A stretch of 24,757 nt of DNA from an uncultured Candidatus Bathyarchaeia archaeon (lineage in GTDB: Archaea; Thermoproteota; Bathyarchaeia; 40CM-2-53-6; CAVXDP01): contig CAYGZB010000006.1 in NCBI GenBank assembly GCA_964354325.1, positions 1 through 24,757 of the forward strand, in the 5' to 3' direction. A program made the translations under genes and the position numbers. The notes under the pieces were generated by a model. It worked only from the letters and a program-made list of their open reading frames with translations. It did no database searches and was not told the DNA's origin. How positions within the stretch are numbered: the first letter of the stretch is position 1; each line of letters starts with the position of its first letter. Positions 785 to 21,671 of the stretch are shown here, one piece after another.

Positions 785-941
785 CCGTGCTTTCCCTCTC
801 ATAGACTTTGTACTTTGCATACTTGTCAGAGGGCGAAAACTTTGCAGGTTGTGGTGATCTTGTCTCGGTGCCGCACTTAGGACATTTCTCTTTAAGCGTG
901 TAGAGCATGCATGAGCTGCATTGTCTTATTAGCCATCTCAA
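744..941 (-). CDS. nop10: H/ACA RNP protein Nop10
   Basis: CxxC..YTLK..CPKCG..P.PAKFSP.DKY signature; TTG start overlaps the aIF2a TGA stop (TTGA). Confidence 0.92.
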   Translation of the reverse strand: MRWLIRQCSSCMLYTLKEKCPKCGTETRSPQPAKFSPSDKYAKYKVYERESTDEDLRERREDSAE

Positions 942-1720
942 GTGACTCGGCGTCCTTGTCCTCCAGCTTGGTCAATCGTCGACACAGCTTGGTCGATTGC
1001 TTCTTTGAGGACTTTCTCGGCCTCGGAATAGTCCTTTGCAGTGACCTCTATTTGATATTTTGGAGCTCCCACTGCGTAAACCTTGATCGTGCTACTTCGA
1101 GGTTTCTTCGCCTTCTTTGCGTTTAGAAGACCCTTCTTGATGTGCTCAATTCCATCTGGCTTGGAGCATGTAAGCTCCAAAACAGCCTTGCAGATGGCTT
1201 TCTCAGTCTTTATTTTCGTTCTGGCTACTTCGGTGATGACTTTCGCCCAGTTCAGATCAATTCCAATTTTTGCGAAGGTCTCTTCGCCTTCCTCGACTGC
1301 TTCCTGTAGCGCGTCGTAAAGTGATCCGTACTTGTCGAGAATCAGGTTGTTGAGGTTTTCGGCTGAACCTGCATCTAATGAAAGTTTTTCAATTGCGCTT
1401 TTCAGAATCGAATCTGCTTTCTTGTATTTCTTCCATTCGAGCAGTGTTTCCGCTTTTTCTCTTCCAGTGACTCTTCTCAGAGAGAGGTCGACTTGCCCTT
1501 TTTCTGTGTTTATTCTGAGAACCTTGAGAACTAGTTTCTGACCTTCTCTCACGTGGTTCCTTATGTTACGTACCCATGTCGTCGATATCTCTGAAATGTG
1601 GATTAGCCCTTCCTTGTTCTTGTACTCGTCGAGTTTTACATAGGCTCCGTAGTCTGTAACTTTGGTCACAGAAGCTACTACAAGGTCGCCCACGTCAGGA
1701 AATTCTGTTTGCGAAGAGAA
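938..1720 (-). CDS. eif2a: Translation initiation factor 2 subunit alpha (start uncertain: TTC 1720 or GTG 1693)
   Basis: S1 domain (YGAYVKLDEY..KEGLIHISEIS..WVRNIR, VDLSLRRV) and C-terminal GAPKY. The frame is open to the TAG at 1733-1735; the only canonical start is GTG 1693. Confidence 0.95.
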   Translation of the reverse strand, partial: FSSQTEFPDVGDLVVASVTKVTDYGAYVKLDEYKNKEGLIHISEISTTWVRNIRNHVREGQKLVLKVLRINTEKGQVDLSLRRVTGREKAETLLEWKKYKKADSILKSAIEKLSLDAGSAENLNNLILDKYGSLYDALQEAVEEGEETFAKIGIDLNWAKVITEVARTKIKTEKAICKAVLELTCSKPDGIEHIKKGLLNAKKAKKPRSSTIKVYAVGAPKYQIEVTAKDYSEAEKVLKEAIDQAVSTIDQAGGQGRRVT

Positions 1721-1732
1721 CTGTGGAGCCTC

Positions 1733-12593: not shown

Positions 12594-13103
12594 TTAAGCT
12601 ATTTTGGGCTCCAACTTCTGAATGAAGACTCTTGAAGCCATTGACAATTTCGAAGATGAAACTCTCAAGGCTTCCTTTGCATGTCCAAGGGCTGATTCGT
12701 TTACATAGATTTCTATCACTGCTTTATTTGGCTTCAACCTCGCCGCCCTTCCGGTAGGCTTGCCAAAAGACCTGCGCATTCCTTCTTGCAGCCTGTCTGC
12801 TCCGGCCGTTGCAATCATTCGGTTCTCCCTAAGAATTATGTGTGGATAGGACACCAGCTTGACGAGATAGCCTGTCTCACCAAGTTTGTCAAACATGACC
12901 TTGTTCGCTGATACACGCGCCGCTTCGAGGGCATTGTGTCGAATCTGAATTGCACTCTCAGATAGGAGCGATACCTTATACTGGTAGGTTGCTTTGGAGT
13001 CGCCCATAGTGAACTTCTGGACCTTTGACGGGGGCGATCCGTGAATGTATTTATGCCGAGTGTAGGATTGTCCTTTCGCAACCCTGTAATTGCGGCCTTT
13101 CGT
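12594..13103 (-). CDS. rpl10e: 50S ribosomal protein uL16 (L10e), probable ACG start
   Basis: ALEAARVSANK, YPH.ILRENRM..AGADRLQEGMR.SFGKP motifs. The frame continues upstream of ATG 13007 through KGRNYR..GQSYTRHKYIHGSP to ACG 13103 (169 aa). Confidence 0.95.
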   Translation of the reverse strand, partial: TKGRNYRVAKGQSYTRHKYIHGSPPSKVQKFTMGDSKATYQYKVSLLSESAIQIRHNALEAARVSANKVMFDKLGETGYLVKLVSYPHIILRENRMIATAGADRLQEGMRRSFGKPTGRAARLKPNKAVIEIYVNESALGHAKEALRVSSSKLSMASRVFIQKLEPKIA

Positions 13104-13144
13104 GACTGGTCACCTGAATCGTCAGCATAGAGCCTTTGACTCGT

Positions 13145-13152
13145 TATATAAA
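13145..13152 (-). promoter_or_regulatory. TATA box for rpl10e
   Basis: TTTATATA on the minus strand; predicts a TSS near 13122, just upstream of the AGGTGA SD at 13115-13110. Confidence 0.65.
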
Positions 13153-13155
13153 GAC

Positions 13156-13890
13156 TTAGTTGATTTCATGTTTCTCAAGTTGATTGATTAGTCTCAGATT
13201 CCTTCGAAACACTCCAATCAACAAAGATGTTTCACGTCGAGTTATGAGAGATCTCGATAGTAAGTTGTGAAAGGCTCTGCTCGCCAACGTACGTCTGTGA
13301 CTTGACATTGCGCTACATTCTGCGAGTCCATTGAAGAGATCCATCAACCTCTTGGTCATTTGTCTGTCTGGACAAACTCTCCTCGAACATCTCTTCTGAT
13401 CAGCCTTAAACAATTCATAGAAGATCACAGCCGCAGCGTGTGAAACATTCAACGTCGAGTACTCTCGACTAGCGGGAATCGTCACGATCAAATCGCAAAG
13501 ACGCAACTCTTCGTTCGAAAGCCCCGTAGTGTCTCTTCCAAGAACAAAGGCGGCCTTACTATTTGAAGAAACAATTCTCTCAGCAGCCGTCTCAAGATCG
13601 CAAGTTGATCTAAGTACATTCCTATTGGATTCTCCAAGCCGAGCAGTCGTACCGACTGAAATATCAATGTCCAAAAGAGCTTCTCCAAGGGAGCCTTGGA
13701 CTACGGCATTGTCTATTACATCTGTTGCATGGACAGCAAACATTCTTGATACTTCTCCAAGTTTGTACACTGGATTGACTACTCTCAAGTCCTTGACACC
13801 AAAATTCTTCATTGTACGAGCAACGTATCCCACGTTCGCCTCATACAGCGGTTCAACGAGAACAACTCTGACATCCAACAAAACCGTCAC
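13156..13890 (-). CDS. trmJ: TrmJ/TrmH-family (SPOUT) tRNA 2'-O-methyltransferase
   Basis: VVLVEP...NVG.VAR.MKNFG, GRD..GLSNEEL and LNVSHAA motifs. Start GTG 13890 or a TTG 3-4 codons later. Confidence 0.9.
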   Translation of the reverse strand: MTVLLDVRVVLVEPLYEANVGYVARTMKNFGVKDLRVVNPVYKLGEVSRMFAVHATDVIDNAVVQGSLGEALLDIDISVGTTARLGESNRNVLRSTCDLETAAERIVSSNSKAAFVLGRDTTGLSNEELRLCDLIVTIPASREYSTLNVSHAAAVIFYELFKADQKRCSRRVCPDRQMTKRLMDLFNGLAECSAMSSHRRTLASRAFHNLLSRSLITRRETSLLIGVFRRNLRLINQLEKHEIN

Positions 13891-20498: not shown

Positions 20499-20582
20499 GT
20501 AATTGTTCCAGCCAATCGTCTGTAGTTATTCTGACAAAACTGCAAGTGATGCAATATCCTAGACGACTATTCGTCTCATAAT

Positions 20583-21671
20583 ATACGGATTTCAATTGGG
20601 GCTGGAAGAACCCTACTGCTTTCTGGGCCAGCTTCGATCAAGCTAATTGATGGAGAGGCAAGCATCTTCGCTTCTCCGCTAGAAAGGGGATACAAGATTG
20701 TTGTCGGCAAAGGAAAACAACTTCCGATAGAAACATCGAAAAACTCCACCATCCACTGTTCCCTTTCCAGTTCTGCTGAATCTCTGGAGATCGCTGGAAG
20801 CACGATCCCTGAGTCTTGGATGGAAACAGCGCAGACTATCGTCGAATGTGGACAAGGAAGGACCGTCGTCATTGGCAACGTGGACACTGGCAAAACCGGT
20901 TTCTGCACCGTGCTAGCTAACATCGCCTTGAATTCGGGAGTCAAGGTTGGAATTCTTGATGCTGACCTTGGTCAGTCTGACATTGGACCACCTGGCAGCA
21001 TTGGATTCGGGCGAGCAGGCAACCACATCTTTGGCCTATCAGATGTCACTCAGGATCGTCTGTATTTTGTAGGATACATTAGTCCAGCGCTAGTAGTCAA
21101 CAAAGCACTGTCTGGAATGAGGAAACTGCTGGAACGGACAAAGAGTGTTGATATTCTCATAATCAACACAGATGGGTGGGTTCTGGGTGACCAGGCAATT
21201 GTCTACAAGAAGAGCCTGATCGACCTAATCGAACCGAATTTTGTTGTGGGAATAGGGGAAAAAAGCGAAACAAACTCTATCCTTGAACTTGTCGAGCAAA
21301 CATCATTTCAAATACAGTCCCCGAAGATGGTTCTCAGACGCACAAGAGAGCAGAGGAAAGAACTGAGGGAATTGAGGTACAGGAAATACCTGAACAGATC
21401 GGTCGTGGTGAAGGTTGATACTCTCAGATCTAAGGTTTCATTTAGCAATGGTCAGGTGTTGAGACCTGAGCATCTTGATTTATCGTTGACAAGGTCTCTT
21501 CTGGGCATGCTTGATGATGATGGATGGCTGTTGGGAATAGGGGTTCTTTCAGGCATGAACCGGAAAGACGAGAGCCTTAGGATTACAACACCTGTAACAT
21601 CCTTTTCTGAAATCGAAATTGGAGCCGTAAAACTGGATGAAAATGGGACCGAGTTATCATATTTGGAATAG
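20583..21671 (+). CDS. Clp1/Nol9-family polynucleotide 5'-hydroxyl kinase, probable ATA start
   Basis: P-loop GNVDTGKT, DADLGQSDIGPPG and INTDGW motifs. The frame is open from 20550 and encodes GRTLLLSGPAS...GSTIPESW before ATG 20820. Confidence 0.9.
   Translation: MRISIGAGRTLLLSGPASIKLIDGEASIFASPLERGYKIVVGKGKQLPIETSKNSTIHCSLSSSAESLEIAGSTIPESWMETAQTIVECGQGRTVVIGNVDTGKTGFCTVLANIALNSGVKVGILDADLGQSDIGPPGSIGFGRAGNHIFGLSDVTQDRLYFVGYISPALVVNKALSGMRKLLERTKSVDILIINTDGWVLGDQAIVYKKSLIDLIEPNFVVGIGEKSETNSILELVEQTSFQIQSPKMVLRRTREQRKELRELRYRKYLNRSVVVKVDTLRSKVSFSNGQVLRPEHLDLSLTRSLLGMLDDDGWLLGIGVLSGMNRKDESLRITTPVTSFSEIEIGAVKLDENGTELSYLE

Follow-up and report, generated by a model that had tools for sequence, protein, structure and literature searches.

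An ACG codon as the likely translation start of ribosomal protein uL16 in a genus of uncultured Bathyarchaeia

Introduction

The bacterial gene infC, which encodes IF3, starts at AUU, and AUU, AUC, AUA and CUG are carried as rare starts in NCBI translation table 11. ACG is absent from the table 11 start list and is a very poor start codon in E. coli. Outside bacteria the codon is met at the beginning of genes in other settings: VP2 of AAV is an example of an ACG start in a eukaryotic virus, and in plant organelles the ACG of ndhD, psbL and other genes is edited to an AUG start codon.

Near-cognate non-AUG initiation at ACG has been described in eukaryotes and their viruses, where it uses Met-tRNAi and is under the fidelity control of eIF1 and eIF2 (PMC8287933). 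For archaea, a 2020 review of initiation gives AUG, GUG and UUG as start codons (PMC7531240), and aIF1 is reported to destabilise complexes formed on non-AUG mRNA (PMC6237735). Ribosome profiling of Haloferax volcanii assigned about 30% of putative alternative initiation sites to near-cognate codons, and these near-cognate sites were set aside as possible false positives (PMC7261190). Our search of the literature found no described ACG start in archaea or bacteria.

Here we examine the gene for ribosomal protein uL16 (L10e) on a 24,757-nt stretch of Bathyarchaeia DNA, called the window throughout. The original prediction, made from the letters of this stretch alone, held that the gene starts at an ACG codon at 13103 on the minus strand, behind a promoter and a Shine-Dalgarno sequence of its own. 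The assembly to which the window belongs measures 0.99 Mb and is estimated to be 87% complete. The named genomes nearest to it are from Bathyarchaeia and were put together from metagenomes of wetland, peat, soil and sediment.

Results

The uL16 frame and its N-terminus

On the minus strand of the window, an in-frame TGA (13112-13110) closes the uL16 frame three codons upstream of the proposed initiation codon and is followed by CCA GTC, by the ACG itself (13103-13101) and by AAA GGC CGC AAT TAC; a second in-frame TGA (13124-13122) shuts the frame further upstream. The first canonical in-frame start is an ATG (13007-13005) that lies 32 codons downstream of the ACG, with no earlier ATG, GTG or TTG in the uL16 frame; public gene calls start there, and we annotate it as an internal methionine codon. 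Both the GTG at 13113 and the ATG at 13128 are out of this frame. Re-reading the sequence, we found every coordinate and sequence statement of the original prediction to be correct on the minus strand, including the reading frame after the ACG, the position of the closing TGA and the lack of any canonical start before 13007. A canonical start is absent between the upstream stop and the conserved N-terminus in all genus-clade uL16 loci as well.

The stop-to-stop translation matches the NCBIfam model NF003239 with 204.1 bits against a cut-off of 91, a match that covers residues 3-168 of the translation and begins at profile position 3-4; other uL16 subfamily models match the window protein only below their cut-offs. 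Codons 2-32 (13100-13008, minus strand) encode the conserved N-terminal segment KGRNYR...YTR..YIHG.P..K..KF and are required to fill positions 3-35 of the uL16 family profiles. Solved structures agree with the profiles: the archaeal uL16 chain 8hku_L10E aligns at E 1.2e-40 with its residue 3 against query residue 5, so that Met1 of that chain corresponds to the ACG codon, and the uL16 chain 9e6q_AN matches at E 9e-40. The claim that a conserved L10e N-terminus is encoded upstream of 13007 is thus upheld, since profile positions 3-35 and the solved chains need those residues. Judged by these profile and structure matches, the stop-to-stop translation is full-length uL16/L10e, and the putative complete coding sequence runs from 13103 to 12594 on the minus strand (169 codons plus stop).

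Public annotation presents a shorter protein. The exact 137-aa product that begins at ATG 13007 is found on 14 contigs (NCBI, JGI/IMG, ENA and Logan); one cluster member, of 137 aa, is labelled L10e by its source, and other members have 145 aa. At 137 or 145 aa in place of 169, these calls drop 24-32 conserved uL16 residues.

Substitution pattern around the ACG

Nine ACG lineages could be compared over the 32-codon stretch that public calls leave out. Substitutions fall on codon positions 1, 2 and 3 in the ratio 134:105:497, and the codon differences comprise 386 synonymous and 185 nonsynonymous changes; because of this excess of third-position and synonymous change among lineages, we infer that the stretch is translated in the uL16 frame. 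The first ACG never varies in the nine lineages, and threonine codons 14 and 31 of the same stretch make use of ACA, ACC, ACG and ACT. Immediately upstream the picture is one of free variation, the two codons preceding the ACG being CCA GTC, CTA GTT, CTG GAT, CTT GTT or CCG GCC. An in-frame stop lies at most four codons upstream of the ACG in five of the nine lineages, and no in-frame canonical start was found upstream of it in any of the nine. By this pattern of change, the ACG behaves as a start codon and not as a sense codon.

The aligned codon in relatives

For all orthologous uL16 loci that could be retrieved, we scored the codon directly before the invariant K/R-G-R/K-N/S-Y-R motif. The species-representative genomes of the order provided 50 distinct loci, with ATG in 30, TTG in 14, GTG in 2 and ACG in 4, the last being the window and three informative genus mates (G000 denotes the window's genome and G001-G004 its genus mates; G002 is uninformative for uL16, the 5' end of the gene falling in a run of N). 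Metagenomes provided 72 loci (31 ATG, 29 TTG, 2 GTG and 10 ACG), and the proteins of the ACG loci are 74-100% identical to the window uL16. Loci that the motif search missed carry ATG or TTG at this place too. Over Bathyarchaeia as examined here, every uL16 locus outside the genus clade, about 130 of them, shows ATG, TTG or GTG precisely at the ACG-aligned codon. Aligning the rpl10e 5' ends, one of the checks suggested with the original prediction, therefore places the ATG, TTG and GTG of relatives on ACG 13103.

ACG was found in 10 of the 10 distinct members of the window's genus clade, and because it recurs in every member found we regard the arrangement as more than chance. In a protein tree of 107 distinct rows, which is a quick tree and not the product of a careful search, the 10 ACG rows form one branch (SH-aLRT 99) that requires a single change. 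The ACG clade is a single evolutionary event and its members are not independent. As far as these sequences allow us to say, the best explanation is that ATG gave way to ACG a single time, at the root of this Bathyarchaeia genus.

Promoter, leader and Shine-Dalgarno sequence

A TATA box, TTTATATA (13152-13145, minus strand), comes 4 nt behind the stop codon of a trmJ-like gene upstream, and the block AAGTCTTTATATAACGA around it is conserved in the genus-clade loci (alignment A1). That TTTATATA serves as the uL16 promoter is inferred and has not been shown. The TATA box is conserved 49-56 nt upstream of every ACG (49 nt in the window), and the distance from TATA to start codon across the order is 42-52 nt, from which we infer that a short-leadered, Shine-Dalgarno-led mRNA is the ancestral layout and that the start codon alone changed. 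Archaeal transcription usually starts about 26 nt from the centre of the TATA box. The transcription start region predicted here (13126-13120, minus strand) is likewise inferred; it falls within the conserved motif GCTG(A/G)C, which lies about 25 nt downstream of the TATA box and is invariant in alignment A1. When we sought to calibrate the TATA-to-start distance from the window's genome, no positional TATA signal upstream of predicted starts was obtained, so that the transcription start is assigned from what is generally known of archaea. The contigs of RNA runs go as far as 13109, with none upstream of 13119, where one DNA run is continuous; this absence fits the predicted promoter.

The longer form of the motif, (CT)ATGCTG(A/G)C (window 13130-13120, minus strand; about 25 nt downstream of TATA), is conserved in the uL16 leaders of several families. 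Family f9 carries it as GGTATGCTGAGCC, and GCAGCC is retained in the sister genus (g6). The motif probably marks the transcription start or belongs to a promoter-proximal element.

The Shine-Dalgarno sequence AGGTGA (13115-13110, minus strand) follows the TATA box after about 30 nt and is separated from the ACG by 6 nt. It shows complementarity to the 3' end of 16S rRNA, and every ACG of the clade is preceded at this distance by AGGTGA or AGGTGG. The window genome's own 16S gene is unassembled, and that of G003, which lies on the same contig as the G003 uL16 gene, was used as reference; it ends GGATCACCTCCT, which makes AGGTGA and AGGTGG good Shine-Dalgarno sequences in this genus. The duplex predicted between the window leader and the anti-Shine-Dalgarno has an energy of -8.6 kcal/mol. 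Averaged by start codon, leaders with ACG reach -8.2 kcal/mol and those with ATG and TTG -5.2 and -5.4 (about -5.3 over both); the Mann-Whitney p of 4e-5 for ACG versus ATG/TTG relatives is inflated, since all ACG leaders come from a single clade. This 6-nt spacing, counted from the A of GGAGGUGA, is within the modal 4-7 nt of canonical Shine-Dalgarno-led genes in the window's genome. As to that genome in general, a Shine-Dalgarno sequence of at least 5 nt precedes the first canonical start in about 13% of long open reading frames (81/620); over all 620 frames the first canonical start is ATG in 286, TTG in 213 and GTG in 121 cases.

Complementarity, spacing and genus-wide conservation thus support the proposal that ACG 13103 has a TATA box and a Shine-Dalgarno sequence of its own. 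The accompanying suggestion that a GUGA/UCAC hairpin masks these elements did not hold, as the hairpin is not in the minimum-energy fold and its pairing is neither conserved nor covarying in the genus. A masking hairpin over the Shine-Dalgarno sequence and start was rejected on the further ground that the leader folds no better than shuffled sequences.

DNA and RNA reads

Of the words sampled from the region, 76-95% occur in each of fourteen DNA runs (X1-X14), which come from different samples of wetland, freshwater and sediment; the region is present as RNA in X17, X26 and X19. In one of them (X2), a 1708-nt contig is identical to the window over 12871-13500 and hence carries the ACG. One RNA run (X17) gave a 234-nt contig that spans 12876-13109 with zero differences from the DNA, and ACG is therefore present in RNA. 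The RNA evidence is thin: it consists of one contig, of word depth about 5, that reaches no further than 6 nt beyond the ACG on the upstream side, and partial editing is not excluded because contigs hide minority variants.

The original prediction foresaw three alternatives to the ACG, the first two as grounds for its refutation, and neither of these two refuted it. A consensus error for ATG is contradicted by independent DNA assemblies, which read ACG; in none of the nine lineages is GTG 13113 brought into the uL16 frame by a lost or added base; and C-to-U editing finds no support in the single low-depth X17 contig, which has ACG and not AUG.

Other ACG starts in the genome

A screen of the complete assembly looked for long frames that open with a non-canonical codon preceded, at suitable spacing, by 5 nt or more of GGAGGTGA. 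It yielded three convincing ACG cases, namely uL16, chorismate synthase and a COG1900-like gene. Enrichment of Shine-Dalgarno plus ACG was not detectable genome-wide (8 ACG cases, of which three look real, against about 6 per average codon), and a first genome-wide tally was swamped by Shine-Dalgarno-like words within genes; the multi-gene argument rests on three curated cases.

The chorismate synthase gene (G000:C2:17548-18660, equivalent to L082:549-1661; minus strand) opens with GGGGTGA, six bases and ACG GCA GGT AAC, and its ACG comes six bases after the TGA of the upstream gene. The GESHG motif follows this ACG, and the next canonical start is 22 codons downstream. Within the genus the start codon is ACG in G000, G002 and G004 and GTG in G001 and G003, an interchange that, at the level of sequence comparison, is hard to explain unless ACG is a start codon. 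Other families have TTG or ATG at the same codon, or CTG in three loci, two of which (L095 and L106) have no nearby canonical start and the third of which (L099) has an in-frame TTG five codons upstream. The COG1900-like gene, of the homocysteine-biosynthesis type (G000:C7:15282-16433, equivalent to L083:483-1634; minus strand), has GGAGGT, 7 nt and ACG. G000, G001 and G003 share this ACG, and the TTG start of another locus, L120, aligns with it; an in-frame TGA separates an upstream ATG from the ACG in G000 and G001, and in G003 the ATG is in frame. The rpoK gene contributes no case of a non-canonical start, having an in-frame TTG or ATG in G002 and G003. The use of an ACG start in at least two further genes suggests that the initiation machinery of the genus accepts ACG.

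Unusual features of other genes

Three further genes drew our attention in the same genomes. In the aEF-2 gene of the genus, a conserved and structured insert separates QIR from NIGIIAHVDHGKT (25 nt at G000:C62:5842-5866, equivalent to L084:2643-2667, minus strand; 28 nt each in L225 of G002 and L230 of G003). Each length is a multiple of three plus one, and there is an in-frame TAG inside. Its helices are TCCG/CGGA and G(G/A)CGT/ACG(C/T)C, in which a single compensatory change turns G-C into A-T, and the aEF-2 gene of the sister genus (L226) has no insert. Removal of 25/28 nt yields QIRNIGIIAH, and removal of 16/19 nt yields QIRRPDNIGIIAH. A relaxed bulge-helix-bulge mRNA micro-intron, a programmed +1 frameshift and a bypass are candidates for its nature.

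In the aIF2-alpha gene (938-1732, minus strand), the codon at the start position defined by the Shine-Dalgarno sequence is TTC (window 1720-1718). The same codon is ATC in four genus mates, in the sister genus and in several other families, and ATG or TTG elsewhere. An ATC start on aIF2-alpha, an initiation-factor gene, recalls the AUU of bacterial infC.

A Clp1-like gene (20550-21671, plus strand) has an ATG (20549-20551) that is one base out of frame with the long open reading frame. Its start (window 20547-20600) can be read as ATG + C + AAT ATC CTA GAC GAC TAT TCG, which resembles ATG AAC GAA CGA TTT GAG TAT TCG of G003. On this resemblance, a one-base insertion after the start codon, real or an assembly error, would account for the lack of a start no less well than initiation at ATA. 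The G000 assembly contains many gaps of about 100 N.

Discussion

We consider it very likely that ACG 13103 is the start codon of uL16, a judgement reached with no N-terminal peptide and no ribosome footprints. What we observe is the structure of the gene, the alignment of its ACG with the canonical starts of relatives, the conservation of this codon without variation, the complementarity and spacing of the Shine-Dalgarno sequence, and an unedited ACG in one RNA contig, all of which support the claim.

The same N-terminus, Met-Lys-Gly-Arg, would be produced if a micro-intron or a translational bypass joined ATG 13128-13126 to AAA 13100, taking out 25 nt in the window and 28-32 nt in genus mates. 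This ATG belongs to a conserved motif, CTATGCTG, situated 25, 28, 28, 30 or 32 nt upstream of the AAA in the genus, and the frame-breaking insert of aEF-2, conserved, structured and of similar size (25-28 nt), indicates that small intervening sequences may exist there. The uL16 leaders do not share that structure: RNAalifold, applied to nine of them, gives -2.3 kcal/mol and five weak pairs, with no compensatory change and no pair linking 13126 to 13100, and single leaders fold like shuffled sequences (z -0.4 to +0.9). ATG 13128 follows the first T of the TATA box by only 24 nt, which puts it probably upstream of the transcription start, and the sister genus has the GC(A/T)G motif without this ATG, in keeping with a promoter-proximal element. 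In addition, the X17 RNA contig runs unspliced through 13109-13101, and an intron cannot account for the ACG/GTG interchange in chorismate synthase, where the start comes 6 nt after the upstream stop. We hold such a junction to be highly improbable. The specific case of an archaeal bulge-helix-bulge intron was tried and rejected, as no conserved helix joins the putative junctions in the nine leaders.

C-to-U editing, turning the ACG of the uL16 mRNA into AUG as in plant organelles, has precedent in that editing of ACG to AUG start codons is well known in chloroplasts and plant mitochondria and that archaea possess a C-to-U deaminase, CDAT8, which acts on tRNA. Neither mRNA editing nor an editing machinery for mRNA is known in archaea. 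The uL16 leader has no conserved structure, and no motif beyond the Shine-Dalgarno sequence, that could act as a guide, and the X17 metatranscriptome contig, one of low depth, retains ACG without differences; we find editing harder still to credit than a micro-intron or bypass.

Initiation at GTG 13113, within AGGTGA, followed by a programmed +1 frameshift in the first four codons would account for a GTG that is invariant in the genus and always one base off the uL16 frame. That GTG is part of the Shine-Dalgarno sequence and is without a separate ribosome-binding site, the three codons in between vary freely (ACC AGT CAC, GCT AGT TAC, GCT GGA TAC, ACC GGC CAC), the genus loci have no conserved slippery motif or stimulatory stop, and the starts of relatives fall exactly on the ACG-aligned codon, all of which leaves this frameshift barely credible. 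The idea that the gene is truncated, with a 137-aa protein from ATG 13007 as in public gene calls, or that ACG is a consensus error for ATG in an assembly that is defective elsewhere (N gaps and the out-of-frame ATG of the Clp1-like gene), deserves hardly any weight either, given the same ACG in at least nine independently assembled lineages and an independent DNA run, and 32 upstream codons that are under in-frame purifying selection and account for conserved positions of the profiles as well as for residues seen in solved structures.

If uL16 translation does start at the ACG, the uL16 mRNA would be made from its own TATA box with a leader of roughly 20 nt, and AGGUGA, being at the usual distance, would pair with the 3' end of 16S rRNA and bring the ACG into the P site. 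The initiator Met-tRNA would then pair with the A and G of the codon, the central C:A mismatch being tolerated, and the protein should begin Met-Lys-Gly-Arg-Asn-Tyr-Arg. The ACG would have been kept in this way through about 26% protein divergence, alongside a Shine-Dalgarno sequence stronger than in relatives. Initiation at ACG, methionine as the first residue and the exact transcription start are inferences. So is the mechanism, near-cognate initiation by Met-tRNAi positioned by the Shine-Dalgarno sequence, for which there is no protein-level or biochemical proof. The 87% complete assembly did not yield an initiator tRNA for the genus (aragorn reported only 15 tRNAs, with one elongator-like tRNA-Met), and because it is missing there an unusual initiator cannot be excluded.

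It remains possible, but in our opinion doubtful, that the ACG is maintained by selection as a regulatory device and is not merely a tolerated defect, so that uL16 and a few other genes would be tied to the stringency of start-codon selection by aIF1/aIF2. If true, this would provide an archaeal counterpart of the infC AUU loop, with ACG as a regular archaeal start codon. The setting for such regulation would be a lineage in which aIF2-alpha itself appears to start at ATC.

An ACG start on an essential ribosomal protein, together with the ACG/GTG interchange, would widen the set of archaeal start codons, and it would show that the Shine-Dalgarno-guided archaeal initiation complex, whose core is shared with eukaryotes, tolerates a mismatch at the second codon position in vivo. 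There are practical consequences as well. Chorismate synthase, if called from its next canonical start, would lose the GESHG motif, and truncated calls of this kind distort protein databases and marker-gene sets for uncultured archaea. The leader of about 20 nt offers a defined substrate for tests of start-codon fidelity in archaeal in vitro systems.

The described systems each share part of this arrangement. The AUU of infC is, like the uL16 ACG, a conserved weak start on a gene of the translation apparatus behind an ordinary ribosome-binding site, and a weak uL16 start could couple expression to initiation fidelity; the uL16 codon differs in being ACG, and no autoregulatory loop has been shown for uL16. 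In plant organelles, as here, a genomic ACG stands exactly where orthologues carry ATG, but the sole RNA contig available for the uL16 ACG is unedited. The near-cognate sites of Haloferax volcanii are alternative or internal, whereas the uL16 ACG is the sole start of a conserved gene, supported by evolution and not by footprints. Compared with ACG initiation in eukaryotes, the uL16 ACG is positioned by a Shine-Dalgarno sequence in place of scanning and Kozak context, and it is the sole start of an essential housekeeping gene in place of the start of an isoform. The two cases are alike in that the codon is a one-base variant of AUG with a mismatch at the second position, in that the first residue is expected to be methionine, and in the homologous core machinery (aIF1, aIF1A, aIF2 and Met-tRNAi) on which initiation depends.
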